Positions 2,782 to 37,910 are shown, numbered from the stretch's first letter. The stretch is 44,829 nucleotides of DNA from Escherichia phage VB_EcoS-Golestan (NC_042084.1), one strand, 5' to 3'. Translations and numbers: made by a program. The notes: generated from the sequence alone by a model not told the origin.

Positions 2782-3858
2782 ATGCTATTAACTTTAGTAC
2801 CACAGGGTTTAACTATGAGCTTACTTACATCCCTCATCAGCCATCAGATATGGCTGCAACGCACCGCATCCGGTGAGGTGAAAGACCTCACACCGTTCAT
2901 TCAGGAGATGCGGGATGAAATCAAACGGCAGGTGCTGTTATTCGGCGACGACGGGCGAAGCACTGCGCGGCTGAATAAACTGTTACGGGACCTTGAAGAA
3001 GCACTGACAGGGATTACAGGTGACTGGCAAACAAAGCTGACAGAAGACCTCAAGGAACTGGCGGCATATGAGGCTGAGTGGAACGTAAAGACACTGACCG
3101 CCAACGTAGCTGCGGAATTTGTTACACCTACCGCTGAACAGGTGTGGGCTGCTGCCGAGTTTCAACCGTTATCGTTGAGCGACAAGCCTGTTGACTTCAC
3201 TAAGCTGATGTCAGGTTGGGGTGAAACCGAAGTCGCGCGCCTGGTAACGGGTGTTAAGATGGGCTTTGTTCAGGGTAAGACAACACGGCAGATTGTTACA
3301 GAAGTAGTCGGTAAAGGCGGGCTGGCTGACGTATCAGAGAAATACGCCGCTACCGTAATCCGCACTGCGCTGTCTCACGTGTCCAACGAAGCCCGCAATG
3401 AAACATACCGCCAGAACGACGATATCATCGAGAAGTACGAATGGGTGTCAACGCTGGACAGCCGTACCAGTACGATTTGCAGAGCCAGGGACGGAATGAC
3501 GTGGGAAATCGGTAAAGGTCCGATGCCGCCAGCGCATCCGAATTGTCGAAGCACCACGGCTCCGGTAATCAGTTCAGAGTTCGACTTCCTCGATAAAGGC
3601 GCAAAACGGGCGGCTAAGGGCGCTGACGGCGGCACTCAGGTAAGCGCGGACACAACATATTACGAGTTCCTTAAACAACAACCGGCATGGTTCGTGGATG
3701 AAGCACTCGGGCCGACCCGCGGTAAGATTTTCCGCAACAGCGGTATATCGCCGGAAGAGTTTCGCGTAATATCTGTAGATGGTTTCGGGAATCCGCTCAC
3801 GCTTAAGCAGATGGCGGAACTCGATAAACGTGTTGCTGATTATCTGAAAGGGGGATAA
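2782..3858 (+). CDS. Head morphogenesis protein (Mu F / SPP1 gp7-like minor head protein); start may be the ATG at 2814
   Basis: 358 aa; C-terminal PPAHPNCRST resembles the HPNCRC hallmark of MuF-like proteins (from memory); position after portal. Confidence 0.7.
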   Translation: MLLTLVPQGLTMSLLTSLISHQIWLQRTASGEVKDLTPFIQEMRDEIKRQVLLFGDDGRSTARLNKLLRDLEEALTGITGDWQTKLTEDLKELAAYEAEWNVKTLTANVAAEFVTPTAEQVWAAAEFQPLSLSDKPVDFTKLMSGWGETEVARLVTGVKMGFVQGKTTRQIVTEVVGKGGLADVSEKYAATVIRTALSHVSNEARNETYRQNDDIIEKYEWVSTLDSRTSTICRARDGMTWEIGKGPMPPAHPNCRSTTAPVISSEFDFLDKGAKRAAKGADGGTQVSADTTYYEFLKQQPAWFVDEALGPTRGKIFRNSGISPEEFRVISVDGFGNPLTLKQMAELDKRVADYLKGG

Positions 3859-4319
3859 TGATGGGCTTTTTCAAAGTAACTGATGTACCGTCGCGTCGCG
3901 TTGTCCAGTTTGCTCGCGTGTCTGGCTCCGGCGAGAACGTGGTGTCTATTGGGGACGAAAGTGTGCTGGGTACACCAGTAGACGATATGCCGTTTGCGGA
4001 TAAAACCGGTATTGCGCTACCCGCGGCAGGGATGCTTTACGAGATTCCGTATCTGGCGGACGCAGGCGATGTGTATCTCTCTGTACAACCGAAAGACACA
4101 GAACTGACAGACGGCAGCGCGACTATCACTGTCGAAGTTAAGGCCGGTAAAGCACCATACGCGCTGACCTGGTACAAAGACGGTAAGGAAGTGGTAAACG
4201 CCCCTGCAGAGGCTCTGTCTCTGACGGTTAACGCGGTGGGTGAATACTTCGTTAAAGTTACCGATGCCGATGGCGTAGAGGCCTTCAGTAAAGCGGCGAA
4301 GGTTATTAAGCCTGAATGA
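3858..4319 (+). CDS. Ig-like domain protein (probable virion surface/decoration protein)
   Basis: 153 aa; ATGA overlap with upstream gene; beta-rich motif LTWYKDGKEV...GEYFVKVTDADG similar to the ORF at 7627-7968. Confidence 0.55.
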   Translation: MMGFFKVTDVPSRRVVQFARVSGSGENVVSIGDESVLGTPVDDMPFADKTGIALPAAGMLYEIPYLADAGDVYLSVQPKDTELTDGSATITVEVKAGKAPYALTWYKDGKEVVNAPAEALSLTVNAVGEYFVKVTDADGVEAFSKAAKVIKPE

Positions 4320-4322
4320 TAA

Positions 4323-4350
4323 GAGGCCCCGAAAGGGGCTTTATTTTTAT
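4323..4350 (+). terminator. Rho-independent terminator
   Basis: AGGCCCC-GAAA-GGGGCT hairpin followed by TTATTTTTAT. Confidence 0.65.
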
Positions 4351-4414
4351 ATGAACATCGCGGTGATAACCGCAGCCGATACCCACAAAACAACATAAAA
4401 CATCACACTATTTG

Positions 4415-4759
4415 TCATTTGCATTTCTCGTCGTATGTTTGTTGTAACTGCGACAGACGATTACCGGCTGTCATCTCGTCCATAGAAGGCCCAGCGCCTG
4501 TGTCCATAAAGAACAGCGGAACAATCAGGAATGCGCCTGTAACACCGAGTACAACGTTAGTACCTATTTGCTTATTAACACGGTGCGTAGCGTTGGCTTG
4601 AGCTTGTTTTGTCGTGGCGATTCTCGATAGTAACTGATTACATGTTGCCGTTGTATCCCCCGCCTGATAAACCTGTAAAGCTGGGTCTGGCAACGACCTT
4701 ACGCAACCACTCAAACAAACGGCTACAACACCCGCTACTGCTAATTTAATATATTTCAT
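4415..4759 (-). CDS. Lipoprotein with C-terminal hydrophobic segment (candidate superinfection-exclusion or membrane moron)
   Basis: 114 aa; signal peptide with lipobox LSGC; hydrophobic stretch VVLGVTGAFLIVPLFFM; sits alone on the opposite strand within the structural region. Confidence 0.55.
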   Translation of the reverse strand: MKYIKLAVAGVVAVCLSGCVRSLPDPALQVYQAGDTTATCNQLLSRIATTKQAQANATHRVNKQIGTNVVLGVTGAFLIVPLFFMDTGAGPSMDEMTAGNRLSQLQQTYDEKCK

Positions 4760-4857
4760 AGTTCACCATTACCCGTGTCAATTTCACCAATACCACTACA
4801 AGCCCAAAGAAACATCACCGCATCAACTGCAATTACTACTGAAATAACGACTAACAT
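4756..4857 (-). CDS. Small hydrophobic peptide (33 aa) translationally coupled to the lipoprotein
   Basis: Hand-translated MLVVISVVIAVDAVMFLWACSGIGEIDTGNGEL; RBS GAGGAGG 6 nt upstream; stop overlaps lipoprotein ATG (ATGA). Confidence 0.3.
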   Translation of the reverse strand: MLVVISVVIAVDAVMFLWACSGIGEIDTGNGEL

Positions 4858-4884
4858 GACGGCCTCCTCGTTTCGATGTAATGA

Positions 4885-4913
4885 ATAGTACCCTATTATA
4901 TTGGTGTGTGCAA
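4885..4913 (-). promoter_or_regulatory. Family-1 promoter copy A (TTGCAC-N17-TACTAT) containing inverted repeat AATAG-N4-CTATT (4884-4897)
   Basis: About 35 bp near-identical to copies at 14121-14149, 37911-37939 and 39113-39141; lies just upstream of the lipoprotein cassette. Confidence 0.5.
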
Positions 4914-4979
4914 ACTATTTATTTACGTATTCCAGTTATTCCACTCAATTGTAAATGTTGGAATAAACTATTCGAATAG

Positions 4980-5008
4980 TTGACTTTTCACTAAAAATGT
5001 GCTAAGCT
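4980..5008 (+). promoter_or_regulatory. Sigma70-type promoter TTGACT-N17-TAAGCT with extended -10 TG; its -35 overlaps the perfect palindrome ACTATTCGAATAGT (4967-4980)
   Basis: Near-identical promoter at 37602-37630; both followed by the same transcribed leader. Confidence 0.6.
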
Positions 5009-5011
5009 CCA

Positions 5012-5063
5012 CCTGAGCTTGTGAAGTATGAACAAGCGACCGCGGCGCGGGCAGGTAACGGAG
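5012..5063 (+). other. Conserved promoter-proximal leader element, copy 1 (candidate cis-acting RNA, pause/antitermination site or 5' end of a small RNA)
   Basis: 38-nt block CCTGAGCTTGTGAAGTATGAACAAGCGACCGCGGCGCG identical to 37634-37671; contains hairpin GCTTGT-N9-ACAAGC. Confidence 0.5.
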
Positions 5064-5189
5064 CGGGACGTAAGGTCCTGAGTGTAGTTACGCTGACGCG
5101 TTCGGAAGGGCCATACTCTATTGCTTGTGTAAAAAGTAACGGGTTTACTGAGATTACGCCGTTTCTATGTTTAAATGATAAGGACTAGC

Positions 5190-5216
5190 GCCCCGCTTTA
5201 AGGCGGGGCTTTACTT
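5190..5216 (+). terminator. Terminator-like hairpin about 200 nt downstream of the 4980 promoter and upstream of the spanin genes
   Basis: GCCCCGC-TTTAAG-GCGGGGC followed by TTTACTTATC (imperfect U-tract). Confidence 0.4.
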
Positions 5217-5233
5217 ATCGAGAAAGGGGAAAC

Positions 5234-5620
5234 ATGAATCTTAAAGCAACTGTCGTAGCAGGAGCATGTTTCATCATCCTGGCTTACGCCCACGGCATTT
5301 ACCAGTATCGCAGCGGCTGGAGCGAAGGCCGGGCGAATCTCGTTTCGCAGCAACAGCAGAAAGCGCAGGCTGAGTTAGCGAAGAAAACACAACGGCAGCA
5401 GCAGGACGAATCAAAGGCCGCCGCCGCCGACAACGAAGGCAAGACGAAATCAGAGGTGATTACCCGTGAAGTCGTTAAATACATTAAAACGCCAGGTCGC
5501 AGCGTGTGCACTTTTGACCCTGAGCGCGTGCAGCTCAAGTCCCGCGCCGTCGCCAACGCCAATTCCATCCCCGGATACGACGATGATGCAGCCGCCGTGC
5601 AAACTGGCGCAGCCAAGTAG
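5234..5620 (+). CDS. i-spanin (Rz-like inner-membrane spanin)
   Basis: 128 aa; N-terminal TM helix, Gln/Ala-rich coiled-coil periplasmic region; o-spanin-like lipoprotein ORF overlaps in another frame. Confidence 0.55.
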   Translation: MNLKATVVAGACFIILAYAHGIYQYRSGWSEGRANLVSQQQQKAQAELAKKTQRQQQDESKAAAADNEGKTKSEVITREVVKYIKTPGRSVCTFDPERVQLKSRAVANANSIPGYDDDAAAVQTGAAK

Positions 5621-5729
5621 CGACGCTGATGAGGATTTGGCCGTCGACGTTCAGAATGCTGAATGCGTACGGCAACTGAGACTGAAAGTGTTCATGTTGC
5701 AGGATTACGTGAGGAATATTCTGGAATAG
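5466..5729 (+). CDS. o-spanin (Rz1-like outer-membrane lipoprotein), overlapping architecture, GTG start
   Basis: 87 aa; lipobox LSAC, proline-rich mature region (SPAPSPTPIPSP); begins inside and extends beyond the i-spanin ORF; RBS AGAGGTGA. Confidence 0.6.
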   Translation: MKSLNTLKRQVAACALLTLSACSSSPAPSPTPIPSPDTTMMQPPCKLAQPSSDADEDLAVDVQNAECVRQLRLKVFMLQDYVRNILE

Positions 5730-5811
5730 TTGCCTTGCATGTTGGAATAATTTATTCTTGACATGTAAATCCGGGTGGCCCGGATTCCAACGTCCAGGGG
5801 ACATACTGACT

Positions 5812-6513
5812 ATGAATCGTTTTTTACGTTATCCGTTCCAGGAAGAAGCTGGAGCAGAAGATAAAGCTGGTGGCGGTGACGCTCCTAAAATGTTCACCGC
5901 TGAAGAAGTTCAGGCGCTGATTGAGAAAGAAGTTGCCGGGCTTAAGGCCAATCAGGAAGCATTGCTGGCGGAGAAGAAAGAAGCCGCCCGTAAAGCAAAA
6001 GAGGCCGAAGAAGAACGGCAGCGTGCGCACCAGGAGGCGTTAAAGGCCGCCGGTAAGATGGACGAGTTTGAAAAGACGATTCGTAGCCAGTATGACCCGG
6101 TGTTAGCCGAGAAAGATGGCCGCATCTCCAAAATGGCAGAGCGCATCCTCGGCAGCGAACGTAAAGCGGTGCTAGGCTCTTTCGCGGGTGACTTTATTAC
6201 CCCGGAAGCAGTGGACATCCTTGCGCCGTTCGTTAAGACTGAGTTCGAAGGTGATGATGTGGTTACTAAGTTTGTCGGCGCAGACGGTAACGTAATCACG
6301 ACTGACCCGGAACAGTTCCGCAAATACCTGCGTGAACACAAAGCGTTTTCGCATTTGATTAAAGCAAATGCAGCTTCCGGCGGCGGGGCTTCCGGTGGCA
6401 AAGGCGGCGGGGCCGCACCAGCGTTTAAAGACATGAGTGAAGCAGAGCGTTTAGCCCTGTATAAATCGAACCCTGCCGAATTTGAACGGCAACTTAAAGC
6501 CCTGAGGAAATAA
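5812..6513 (+). CDS. Scaffolding protein (probable); start taken at ATG 5812 rather than ORF-track 5758
   Basis: Charged, alpha-helical, coiled-coil-like sequence with Gly-rich tail; directly upstream of the major capsid gene. Confidence 0.55.
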   Translation: MNRFLRYPFQEEAGAEDKAGGGDAPKMFTAEEVQALIEKEVAGLKANQEALLAEKKEAARKAKEAEEERQRAHQEALKAAGKMDEFEKTIRSQYDPVLAEKDGRISKMAERILGSERKAVLGSFAGDFITPEAVDILAPFVKTEFEGDDVVTKFVGADGNVITTDPEQFRKYLREHKAFSHLIKANAASGGGASGGKGGGAAPAFKDMSEAERLALYKSNPAEFERQLKALRK

Positions 6514-6515
6514 TA

Positions 6516-7565
6516 ATGGCAATTACCACTATCGGCGATATCGTAACTGGCAACATCCCGGTCCTGGCGTCTTATATGACCGAGGACCCGGTAGAAAAAA
6601 CCGCGTTCTTCCAGTCTGGTATTCTCACCCCGACCCCATACGCCGCCGAGATTGCCCGCGGCCCGTCCAACGTCGCTAATATTCCTTTCTGGAAAGCGAT
6701 TGATACCTCTATCGAGCCGAACTACTCGAACGACGTATACCAGGACATCGCCACCCCGCGTAACGTGCAGACCGGCGAGATGATGGCGCGCGTTGCGTAC
6801 CTGAACGAAGGTTTCGGTCAGGCGGATTTGACCGTTGAACTGACCAGCCAGAACCCGCTGCAATCCGTAGCGTCACGTCTGGATAACTTCTGGCAGCGTC
6901 AGGCACAACGCCGTCTGATTGCTACCGCGCTCGGGCTGTACAATGACAACGTAGCCGCTACCGACGCATACCACGAGCAGAAGGACATGGTAATCGACGT
7001 GTCTGCTACTCTGGGCTTCGATGCGGGCGCGTTCATCGACGCTACCCAGACTATGGGCGATGCTCTGATGGGCAACGGCGGTGAAGTGCTGGGGGCTATC
7101 GCGATGCATAGCTTCGTTTATGCGCAGGCACGTAAGCAGCAGCTTATCGACTTCATCCGTGACGCGGACAACAACACCATGTTCGCCACCTACCAGGGCT
7201 ACCGCGTGATTGTTGACGACAGCATGACCGTAGTCGGCACTGGCCCGACCCGTAAGTTCATCTCCATCATCTTCGGCAACGGCGCTATCGGTTACGGTGA
7301 AGGTTCTCCGTCCAACCCGCTGGAATACGAGCGCGAAGCGTCCCGCGGCAACGGCGGCGGCGTTGAAACCCTGTGGACCCGTAAGACCTGGTTGCTACAT
7401 CCGTTTGGTTACAGCTTCACCAGTGCAGTAATCACTGGCAACGGCACCGAGACTACCCCGCGCTCTGCTTCCTGGCAGGACCTGGCGAACGCCTCCAACT
7501 GGAACCGTGTGGTTGAGCGTAAGCATGTACCGATTGCCTTCCTGGTAACTGGTGTCGGTGCCTAA
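6516..7565 (+). CDS. Major capsid protein
   Basis: 349 aa; RBS AGGAAA; follows scaffold, followed by strong terminator; typical size and position. Confidence 0.75.
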   Translation: MAITTIGDIVTGNIPVLASYMTEDPVEKTAFFQSGILTPTPYAAEIARGPSNVANIPFWKAIDTSIEPNYSNDVYQDIATPRNVQTGEMMARVAYLNEGFGQADLTVELTSQNPLQSVASRLDNFWQRQAQRRLIATALGLYNDNVAATDAYHEQKDMVIDVSATLGFDAGAFIDATQTMGDALMGNGGEVLGAIAMHSFVYAQARKQQLIDFIRDADNNTMFATYQGYRVIVDDSMTVVGTGPTRKFISIIFGNGAIGYGEGSPSNPLEYEREASRGNGGGVETLWTRKTWLLHPFGYSFTSAVITGNGTETTPRSASWQDLANASNWNRVVERKHVPIAFLVTGVGA

Positions 7566-7582
7566 GGTTAAGCTATAATCGA

Positions 7583-7609
7583 GAGGGACTTCGGTCCCTC
7601 TTTTCATTT
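7583..7609 (+). terminator. Rho-independent terminator/attenuator after the major capsid gene
   Basis: GAGGGAC-TTCG-GTCCCTC hairpin followed by TTTTCATTT. Confidence 0.55.
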
Positions 7610-7626
7610 ACTAAGAGGATTCCTAA

Positions 7627-7968
7627 ATGGCAGACGTATTGAAGCGACGCATCACCGGCGTCTCCGCTGACGCCCCGGGGGCCAAGATTGACATGGAGAC
7701 TATTTCTCCTGCGTCTTTCTCTACGGCACTTAACGCTACTACTGCAGTAACCGCAGGTGAAACTATGACGCTGACAGTCGTAGTAGCTGGCGGTCTTGAG
7801 CCATATTCTTACCAGTGGTATAAGAATAACAACGCTATCGCCGGGGCAAACGCTGCTACCTACGCTAAAGCGTCAACCACTACCGCCGATTCCGGCACGT
7901 ATAAAGTGGTTGTTCACGATGTGTATGGTAATATTATCTCCAGCAGCACCGCAGCAACTGTGTCTTAA
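7627..7968 (+). CDS. Ig-like domain protein (capsid decoration candidate)
   Basis: 113 aa; motif YSYQWYKNNNAI...SGTYKVVVHDVYG typical of Ig-like/Big domains; RBS AAGAGGA; paralogous to 3858-4319. Confidence 0.55.
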   Translation: MADVLKRRITGVSADAPGAKIDMETISPASFSTALNATTAVTAGETMTLTVVVAGGLEPYSYQWYKNNNAIAGANAATYAKASTTTADSGTYKVVVHDVYGNIISSSTAATVS

Positions 7969-7972
7969 TACA

Positions 7973-7990
7973 ACGGCCCTTCGGGGCCGT
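7973..7990 (+). terminator. GC-rich stem-loop (ACGGCCC-TTCG-GGGCCGT) without clear U-tract; RNA-stabilising hairpin or weak terminator
   Basis: Read directly from sequence. Confidence 0.3.
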
Positions 7991-8004: not shown

Positions 8005-8184
8005 ATGGCAGATAATTATGTAATCCGCGAAAAGTACACCCACGTTGATGTTGTTGACGGTCAGGTGATGCCTGTTCGCGGTGCGGTAGAAGCGGAAGAA
8101 CTGGTTGCAACACAACCGGACAACGAAGAAGCGCACAACAACGGTGGTGGTACTAAGCGACGTCGCCGTAAGTCAGAGGAATAA
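8005..8184 (+). CDS. Small hypothetical protein (59 aa) with basic C-terminus
   Basis: Hand-translated MADNYVIREKYTHVDVV...; RBS AAGGAAAGG; below the ORF-track length cutoff. Confidence 0.3.
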   Translation: MADNYVIREKYTHVDVVDGQVMPVRGAVEAEELVATQPDNEEAHNNGGGTKRRRRKSEE

Positions 8185-8702: not shown

Positions 8703-9317
8703 ATGGCGAAGACTAAATCAGAGATGTTTACTCTTATCGGCGCAAACCTCCCCGATAACACTACCGGGCTTATTACCCCAGCAGCGTTGCGCGAGGTAAT
8801 GACACAGATGGCTGACTCACCTATTTACGCCACTCCAGGTGTTAAAGAGGTTGAAGTTCTCCGTGCCACGTCTACGGTAACCCAAGCGCCTACCGCGGTA
8901 GATACGGCATTGCAGTTAACTTTCGGTGCAGCTCAGGGTAGTGCATCCGACCCGGTAATGATTAATGCTGCGGGGCTGGTTACATTCAACACCGCCGGTA
9001 ACCACGCCGTTCGCATCAAGTTACAGGCAGGCCGCACAGGTGCCAGCGGAACGTCTATCCTGTTATCACGCATTCTTCTGAACGGTGCTCAGTACGGCTC
9101 ACCTGCCGCCACGAAACTGGTAAGCGCGGACACCACAATCCCGATTGAATCTCGCGTTGTTATTAACCCAACAGCAGGCCAGACGTTTGCCGTTCAGATT
9201 ATGCGGGATAGCGTCGGAACTAACTTCGGTGGTGTATACCCGCAAGCGGCTACCGTAACCGCATGGGGTACAGCCCCGTCCGCGTTGCTGGTTATTTCGA
9301 GACTGGAGGCCGCCTGA
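8703..9317 (+). CDS. Structural protein of the connector region (position-based)
   Basis: 204 aa; 2-nt spacing after upstream gene. Confidence 0.4.
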   Translation: MAKTKSEMFTLIGANLPDNTTGLITPAALREVMTQMADSPIYATPGVKEVEVLRATSTVTQAPTAVDTALQLTFGAAQGSASDPVMINAAGLVTFNTAGNHAVRIKLQAGRTGASGTSILLSRILLNGAQYGSPAATKLVSADTTIPIESRVVINPTAGQTFAVQIMRDSVGTNFGGVYPQAATVTAWGTAPSALLVISRLEAA

Positions 9318-11650: not shown

Positions 11651-11682
11651 AACTAAGGCCCCTTTCGGGGCCTTTTTCTTAC
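11651..11682. terminator. Bidirectional rho-independent terminator
   Basis: AAGGCCCC-TTTC-GGGGCCTT flanked by an A-run and a T-run; separates convergent major tail gene and kinase gene. Confidence 0.6.
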
Positions 11683-37601: not shown

Positions 37602-37630
37602 TTGACTTTTACTAAAAAATATGGTAAGCT
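37602..37630 (+). promoter_or_regulatory. Sigma70-type promoter TTGACT-N17-TAAGCT with extended -10 TG (paralog of 4980-5008)
   Basis: Near-identical to the 4980 promoter; followed by the same leader. Confidence 0.6.
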
Positions 37631-37633
37631 CAG

Positions 37634-37690
37634 CCTGAGCTTGTGAAGTATGAACAAGCGACCGCGGCGCGCGGCAGGCGAAACGAGCAC
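37634..37690 (+). other. Conserved promoter-proximal leader element, copy 2
   Basis: 38 nt identical to 5012-5049, then similar but diverged sequence. Confidence 0.5.
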
Positions 37691-37799
37691 GTGTAGCGTG
37701 TGGAGTGAGGCTCGCTAGCGCGTTTGGGAGGCCCAAAGTCTATTGTAAATCCCACCTAAATATCTAAGTTACTGATTTGCCGTAGGTCAGAACCGCAAG

Positions 37800-37826
37800 C
37801 TCACTCACTCACTCACTCACTCACTC
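37800..37826. repeat. Tetranucleotide microsatellite (CTCA)6 followed by hairpin GGTGCC-TTCG-GCACC (37831-37846)
   Basis: Direct read: CTCACTCACTCACTCACTCACTCACTC. Confidence 0.9.
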
Positions 37827-37910
37827 TTGGTGCCTTCGGCACCACGTTCGTTTCGTTTCGCTCGCCATCCCATTAAACGAAAGAATCACAACGGCAACGT
37901 AACTATTCTC

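Follow-up and report, generated by a model that had tools for sequence, protein, structure and literature searches.

The closest described systems to the two genes considered here are the small decoration proteins that display immunoglobulin-like (Ig) domains on phage capsids. In the pb10 protein of phage T5, a capsid-binding domain forms the N-terminal part and an Ig domain is exposed to the solvent; the protein occupies the centres of the capsid hexamers and protects the particle from losing its genome only in extreme conditions (PMC5292684). With the exception of T4 Hoc, the Hoc-like proteins all have an N-terminal anchor and a C-terminal Ig domain, and the Hoc-like gp20 of phage Sf14, also anchored by its N-terminus, was located at capsid hexamer centres (PMC11821841). 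We analyzed the 44,829-nucleotide genome sequence of Escherichia phage VB_EcoS-Golestan (NC_042084.1), hereafter called the window, in which two open reading frames (ORFs) on the plus strand, ORF1 (positions 3858-4319, 153 aa) and ORF2 (7627-7968, 113 aa), each encode a protein with a single Ig-like domain. On balance, we consider it probable that they are two separate small virion-surface accessory proteins of the Hoc/pb10 kind, attached to the particle by their N-terminal part and exposing their C-terminal Ig domain.

Both ORFs are annotated coding sequences in the genome of Escherichia phage vB_EcoS_SCS44 (ON001686.1; Guernseyvirinae, Kagunavirus), under accession numbers UOL50894.1 and UOL50901.1. 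The 5.6 kb between positions 2700 and 8300 align over their full length with this genome at 99.3% identity, with no residue changed in ORF1 and 3 of 113 in ORF2. The same 5.6 kb are also matched by about 485 related phage records, most of them from Escherichia Kagunavirus and Salmonella Jerseyvirus. Full-length homologs were found in 484 phage records for ORF1 (Guernseyvirinae and a few Serratia phages) and in about 520 for ORF2. The initial annotation had singled out the two ORFs by a shared WYK...G(E/T)Y(F/K)V(K/V)V signature, and this signature is present in both: the pattern W[YF]K..G[ET]Y[FK]V[KV]V has exactly two matches in the six-frame translation of the genome, at 4170-4259 and 7816-7914, one in each ORF, compared with 0 (strict pattern) or 0.015 (loose pattern) in shuffled translations. 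It is a generic Ig signature, to which strand C contributes the core Trp and strand F the Tyr corner, and not a private link between ORF1 and ORF2.

An Ig fold had been anticipated for both proteins, and structure prediction recovered it in both. ORF1 comprises a lineage-specific N-terminal domain (residues 1-75, 3858-4082), presumed to be a virion anchor, and the Ig-like domain with the motif WYK...GEYFVKV (residues about 76-153, 4083-4316). ORF2 has a short, conserved N-terminal arm (residues 1-33, 7627-7725) and an Ig-like domain with the motif WYK...GTYKVVV (residues 34-113, 7726-7965). AlphaFold2 (AF2) models built from the family alignments gave a confident Ig sandwich for ORF1 residues 71-153, with a predicted local distance difference test (pLDDT) score of 76-93, and a moderate one for ORF2 residues about 25-113 (pLDDT 55-83; residues 1-15 not reliable). 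With the Pfam gathering cut-offs of 30 bits for Ig_3 and 27 for Ig_2, ORF2 scored above both (31.9 and 27.9 bits), and ORF1 remained under the Ig_3 cut-off with 21.2 bits. With a probability of 1.00, Foldseek matched both models to Ig domains (I-set/C2) of Robo, CD22, titin-like and phage proteins; the phage structures included the capsid decoration proteins of N4 (9E99) and Moo19 (9D7Z) and the Hoc protein of RB49 (3SHS). For the ORF1 Ig domain, the matches were Robo Ig1-2 and the N4 and Moo19 proteins, and in a viral structure library it superposed with a root mean square deviation of 1.9 Å on the “Hoc protein” of Salmonella phage wast, an apparent ORF2 ortholog. Among the structural matches listed, no beta-tulip or Soc fold, the cementing type of lambda gpD and T4 Soc, was found for either Ig sandwich.

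Sequence matches in the PDB agree with these folds. The ORF2 Ig domain matched T5 pb10 (8ZVI chain a, E 5e-12; 5LXK chain A, E 4.2e-11), to which ORF1 showed a lower similarity (E 0.005-0.01), and it also matched chain S of the Sf14 capsid entries 9C2D and 9C3A over three Ig repeats (E 7.4e-29). This chain is labelled “tail protein” in the PDB; from its length and number of repeats, it is probably the Hoc-like gp20. The Ig part of ORF2 also matches tail tube and major tail proteins, T5-like pb10 proteins and T4-like Wac variants. At the family level, ORF1 aligned over its full length (residues 2-153 on profile positions 1-152) with phrog_3945 (E 3.1e-83), and ORF2 (residues 1-113 on positions 1-116) with phrog_4069 (E 7.4e-53). 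Both families bear the PHROGs label “Hoc-like head decoration”, which is an annotation, and homologs in the BASEL phages and phage Snoke are annotated likewise. The decoration reading of both Ig proteins is, in other words, already database annotation.

The N-terminal part of ORF1 has a much narrower distribution. A phmmer search of 1.84 billion protein representatives with this domain returned just 7 cluster representatives at E<1e-10, the longest being members of the ORF1 family (129-154 aa) and the rest shorter and probably partial; no relative outside the family was found in this search, in Pfam or in a profile search of the PDB. As far as these sequence comparisons reach, the 75-residue anchor of ORF1 is confined to this phage group. 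Conservation did not clearly distinguish the two parts of either protein, and so offers no clue to the more constrained part (78% for the anchor and 76% for the Ig domain of ORF1; 87% for the arm and 90% for the Ig domain of ORF2).

The two proteins had also been called paralogous, and pairwise alignment upholds this for the Ig domain only, over about 60-80 residues. BLASTP aligned 19 residues (E 1e-4), and hhalign aligned ORF1 residues 83-142 with ORF2 residues 42-104 alone (probability 95.6%, 33% identity over 60 columns). There is no relationship between the first 75 residues of ORF1 and the first 33 of ORF2. Moreover, the ORF2 Ig domain scores higher against Sf14 chain S and T5 pb10 than against ORF1. 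Since homology is limited to the Ig domain, and since that of ORF2 is closer to the Ig domains of other phages, ORF1 and ORF2 are not recent duplicates. Judged by their sequences, they are two members of a mobile phage Ig-domain family, and this promiscuous domain, carried on two unrelated and lineage-specific anchors, is their sole common feature.

Both Ig genes belong to the head morphogenesis module, in the order terL, portal, Mu F, ORF1 and, further on, scaffold, capsid gene, ORF2 and adaptor. The genes for the terminase large subunit (28-1251) and the portal (1264-2745) are followed on the plus strand by a gene for a Mu F/SPP1 gp7-type head morphogenesis (minor head) protein (2782-3858; Pfam PF04233, E 4.9e-13; phrog_241, E 5.8e-153). 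The stop codon of the latter overlaps the start of ORF1 in the sequence TAATG, and ORF1 is translationally coupled to this minor head protein. ORF2 starts 61 nt after the gene of an SPP1-like major capsid protein (6516-7565, plus strand; PDB 4an5 and 6r3a, E about 1e-43), which is preceded by the scaffolding protein gene (5812-6513, plus strand; phrog_206 and phrog_247 cover the scaffold and capsid pair). The location of one ORF after the head morphogenesis gene and of the other after the major capsid gene, as initially described, is thus correct. Downstream from ORF2 come a 59-aa ORF, the head-tail adaptor and, beyond it, other connector and tail genes. In Salmonella phage dunkel, the capsid gene is separated from the ORF2 ortholog by an additional gene (6169-6540 in the record of this phage), which encodes a 123-aa “head fibre” protein, rich in Ala and Thr and with a C-terminal sequence (LNALLAQLRAAKIIAS) that looks coiled-coil-like by eye. 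This protein is a third candidate head accessory protein in dunkel, and the interval 7566-7626 of the window holds no counterpart.

Decoration genes often adjoin the capsid gene. The presence of both Ig genes in the head module, with ORF2 beside the capsid gene, supports a decoration role, as does the combination of an N-terminal anchor with a C-terminal Ig domain, also seen in pb10 and in the Hoc-like proteins other than T4 Hoc. By analogy with these proteins, the N-terminus of each protein would bind the particle and the Ig domain would be displayed to the solvent. ORF2 would most likely be carried by the capsid shell, probably at the hexamer centres and with a copy number below that of the capsid protein, and ORF1 would be head-associated at a site different from that of ORF2, or possibly located near the portal. 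The exposed Ig domains would probably adhere weakly and reversibly to glycans, which could be those of the host O-antigen or capsule, or of mucus. Such a role is plausible because phages of the Guernseyvirinae type depend on surface glycans (O-antigen or capsule) as receptors (PMC11990801).

Several observations weigh against this proposal. No capsid-binding domain of Hoc, pb10 or Sf14 gp20 was found in the N-terminal part of either protein, the PDB alignments covering the Ig domain only. In the AF2 model of ORF1, the N-terminal domain has a pLDDT below 50 and residues 1-70 are not reliable, so that fold searches are uninformative for this part. The same type of Ig domain occurs on tail tube proteins, such as Sf11 gp24, and therefore cannot tell where a protein is located; the suggestion of glycan binding is made by analogy only. 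In the literature, we found no structure and no usable virion proteome for the Guernseyvirinae subfamily, which a 2026 paper calls structurally uncharacterised (PMC13243795). The virion proteome of Serratia phage eta comprises bands of 38 kDa and above only, with no small abundant band reported, which argues against about 415 copies per capsid of the ORF1 homolog and is silent on a low copy number. As for other sources, the BAFASAL paper contains no virion proteomic data on these proteins, these genes receive no mention in the K1B4 transcriptome paper, and phage STGO-35-1 showed no sign of membership in the subfamily.

The names given to the orthologs (tail protein, fibritin, neck whiskers, Hoc, head decoration, capsid decoration or hypothetical protein) point in different directions, and one or both proteins might decorate the neck or the tail and not the capsid. 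We regard this location as rather unlikely. The labels “putative tail protein”, “fibritin” and “neck whiskers protein” are indeed common among the orthologs, but these tail and neck names seem to be based on similarity of the Ig domain only, which makes them unreliable. More generally, naming seems to have been guided by the Ig domain alone, and such names can be erroneous: the Sf11 chain that the PDB lists as “neck whiskers protein gp24” is a tail tube protein (PMC12724387), and the “tail protein” chain of Sf14 is the probable gp20 mentioned above. Ig domains near that of ORF2 are found on tail tube and major tail proteins (phrog_158, 853 and 3995), but a tail-tube or fibritin region is absent from both ORFs, and ORF2 shows no similarity to the 390-aa tail protein of the phage itself (10478-11650). 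The position of ORF1 at the end of the portal and Mu F block makes a portal-proximal or neck site conceivable; both genes nevertheless lie upstream of the connector genes. A purely intracellular role, in assembly or in an interaction with the host, with neither protein in the virion and an Ig fold present by chance, would agree with the failure to detect either protein in the accessible proteomes and with an ORF1 N-terminal domain that has no known relative. It is improbable in view of the conservation of both genes in a late structural operon across about 500 genomes, and all the closest Ig relatives of known location are found on the virion surface.

Phages can add Ig domains to structural proteins by programmed frameshifting, as reportedly described by Fraser et al. 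in 2006. ORF1 could in this way be appended to the Mu F protein by a -1 ribosomal frameshift, and not be a separate protein, as the overlapping stop and start codons adjoin a run of five G (GGGGGATAATG). This candidate was rejected, and we give it hardly any weight: the junction between the Mu F gene and ORF1 is not conserved, with a gap of 2 nt in dunkel and 10 nt in eta, and a TGA closes the ORF1 frame seven codons upstream. The G run doubles as the Shine-Dalgarno sequence of the ORF1 ATG, and the orthologs begin with M(M)GFF everywhere. Virion-surface accessory proteins of the Hoc/pb10 kind remain our preferred reading for both ORFs.

The initial annotation further had each Ig gene followed by a hairpin or terminator and closing a transcription unit. 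A hairpin does follow each ORF. After ORF1, an intrinsic terminator (4323-4342, plus strand) combines an 8-bp stem, a GAAA loop and the U-rich tail UUUAUUUUUAU (-14.5 kcal/mol, z -3.25). After ORF2, a GC hairpin with a UUCG loop (7973-7990, plus strand; -14.7 kcal/mol) has the tail AAUAAGG, with no U-tract, and is absent from the terminator scan. As judged from the sequence, the closing of a unit therefore stands for ORF1, whose U-run terminator is followed by an insert on the opposite strand and then by a new promoter at 4981; the annotation of Serratia phage eta shows the same layout, with an equivalent terminator, T3, after the ORF1 homolog gp44. It does not stand for ORF2. The hairpin downstream from ORF2 lacks a U-run, the next gene begins at 8005, 36 nt on, and no promoter-like site was found between ORF2 and the following connector genes. 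A terminator-like hairpin is found instead upstream of ORF2, between this gene and the capsid gene (7581-7602, plus strand; 9 bp, UUCG loop, UUUUCAUUU tail with a U-tract; -16.9 kcal/mol). Its likeliest reading is that of a partial terminator that would lower the expression of ORF2 and the downstream genes compared with the capsid protein, and its position fits such a lower expression of ORF2. Further GC hairpins with tetraloops are present after the portal gene (2756-2771) and after the 390-aa tail gene (11655-11674). Comparable hairpins after the portal, capsid and tail genes suggest that they are a common punctuation of the operon and not special to the Ig genes.

The new promoter downstream from ORF1 is part of a duplicated element. 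It is a sigma-70-like extended -10 promoter (4981-5014, plus strand; TTGACT, 17 nt, TGnTAAGCT), recognized in the sequence and the probable start of the second head-gene unit; in 40 related copies, the TG and the TAAGCT are invariant and the base between them is variable. A structured leader RNA of about 115 nt follows (copy A, 5009-5123, plus strand), and then a leader terminator (5190-5209, plus strand; 8-bp GC stem, U-rich tail, -17.2 kcal/mol) just before the spanin genes. The second copy (37602-37844, plus strand) heads the other rightward operon and has an identical promoter and a leader (37631-37745) that is identical over its first 45 nt and has diverged in its distal hairpin; a (CTCA)6.8 repeat (37800-37826) comes next, and a terminator-like hairpin (37828-37844) after it. 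A covariance model search of the genome found exactly these two leader copies (135.6 bits for copy A and 98.8 bits for the second). The copy number of the CTCA repeat varies, being of 6.8 perfect units here and about 3-4 in relatives.

This element is better conserved than its surroundings. The interval 4960-5233 is non-coding and at least 95% identical in 177 phage records from both genera. Compared with the Salmonella Jerseyvirus dunkel, positions 4982-5281 show 98-99% nucleotide identity, against about 80-85% for the flanking coding sequences and about 66% for the ORF1 protein. Overall, E. coli and Salmonella phages share copy A at 96-99% identity, with far greater divergence in the neighbouring genes. 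In an alignment of sixteen distinct leader variants, taken from the window and from viral contigs, the 28 pairs of the structure were paired in 97.3% of cases, compared with at most 47% when the partners were slid, and five pairs had compensatory changes, which probably represent few independent events only. Covariation reached 0.182 versus 0.071 in shuffled alignments, a value attained in 0 of 500 shuffles. The structure is supported by this covariation and not by thermodynamics, the single-sequence fold z-score of the leader being only -1.67. No match to the leader was found in Rfam, even at E values up to 10, and no homolog on the E. coli chromosome. The sole Rfam match above the gathering threshold in the genome is elsewhere, a borderline int-alpA RNA (RF02996; 14168-14232, plus strand; 36.6 bits for a cut-off of 35.8, E 4.7e-4).

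In its architecture, the element resembles the put RNAs of HK022 and the late leader PR'-6S RNA-tR' of lambda. The leader described here is a candidate antitermination or attenuation RNA, which may be put-like or of the N/Q type. With such an activity, RNA polymerase might pass the many terminator-like hairpins in the late operons, including those flanking ORF2. In a broader and more tentative scenario, which we hold to be possible but not the likelier outcome, an undescribed cis-acting leader RNA controls both head-gene units and, independently of this, ORF1 and ORF2 may each have a site of their own on a T=7 SPP1-like capsid. In the literature, we found no description of a shell with two different Ig-bearing decoration proteins. 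If the leader RNA proves genuine, it would represent a new class of phage transcription-control RNA and would matter more than the Ig proteins.

Several neighbouring genes deserve mention. The insert between the ORF1 terminator and the new promoter (4415-4857, minus strand) contains two genes, encoding a hydrophobic 33-aa membrane peptide and a 114-aa lipoprotein with the lipobox LSGC (phrog_13472, unknown function). In relatives, the same slot is occupied by an adenine methyltransferase gene (Salmonella phage dunkel), other small genes (Bas76) or a novel gene (Serratia phage eta); as its contents differ between relatives, the slot is a hotspot of gene exchange. A role of the insert in superinfection exclusion would be a guess. 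Directly downstream from the leader terminator, an Rz/Rz1 spanin pair (5234-5729, plus strand; phrog_2536, E 8.5e-57, and phrog_5672, E 2.3e-30, from annotation) stands alone between the two blocks of head genes. No holin or endolysin family was matched among the scanned neighbouring proteins; in phage eta, the whole lysis cassette is found at the Rz/Rz1 position. Between the head-tail adaptor and the head-closure gene, a conserved 204-aa protein of unknown function (8703-9317, plus strand; phrog_3614, E 2.8e-111) could be a further neck or head accessory protein. Finally, the Mu F gene contains an intein in some relatives, according to the annotations of phages Snoke and fEg-Eco06, and the gene in the window has none. 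The dunkel Mu F homolog is 620 aa long, which may be caused by the same intein insertion.

For the Ig proteins, the value of these results is mostly curatorial, both genes being present in about 500 Guernseyvirinae genomes with six or more names that contradict each other. Therapy and biocontrol are potential uses of phages of this subfamily, and in mice a stimulation of immune factors by phage SCS44 has been reported (PMC12309589). Exposed Ig proteins would thus be relevant to immunogenicity, mucus adherence and the engineering of display.

Compared with known systems, the leader resembles the HK022 put and lambda late leaders in being a promoter-proximal structured RNA, present in two copies that head two operons, followed by a terminator and then by long operons with terminator-like hairpins. 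It differs from them in having no sequence or Rfam relationship to them and in being known here from sequence alone. Among proteins that carry the same type of Ig domain, Sf11 gp24 (PDB 9OCC; E 1.9e-05 with ORF2) has it fused to a tail-tube fold, whereas the Ig domains of ORF1 and ORF2 are free-standing and come from the head module. In an SPP1-type capsid, the hexamer centres carry the accessory protein gp12 of SPP1 (PMC5292684), and the capsid protein of the window is SPP1-like, but gp12 is a collagen-like trimer, not an Ig protein, and has no homology to ORF1 or ORF2. The “32 kDa protein” of N4 and the Moo19 decoration protein are Ig-like capsid decorations and structural matches of both ORFs; they are larger, belong to T=9 podovirus capsids and share the Ig fold only. 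The Hoc proteins of T4 and RB49 and gp20 of Sf14 have the same type of Ig domain, with a Foldseek template modelling score of 0.55 between ORF2 and RB49 Hoc, and gp20 has its anchor at the N-terminus. Unlike ORF1 and ORF2, they have three Ig domains and another capsid-binding domain, and T4 Hoc is anchored by its C-terminus. T5 pb10 differs by a capsid-binding domain that is alpha-helical and has no detectable counterpart in ORF1 or ORF2, and T5, whose capsid is T=13, has a single protein of this kind, compared with two in the window phage, whose capsid protein is SPP1-like. It is at the same time a small protein of a siphovirus (164 aa, compared with 153 and 113 aa), with an N-terminal anchor and a single exposed C-terminal Ig domain, the organization that we propose for both ORF1 and ORF2.

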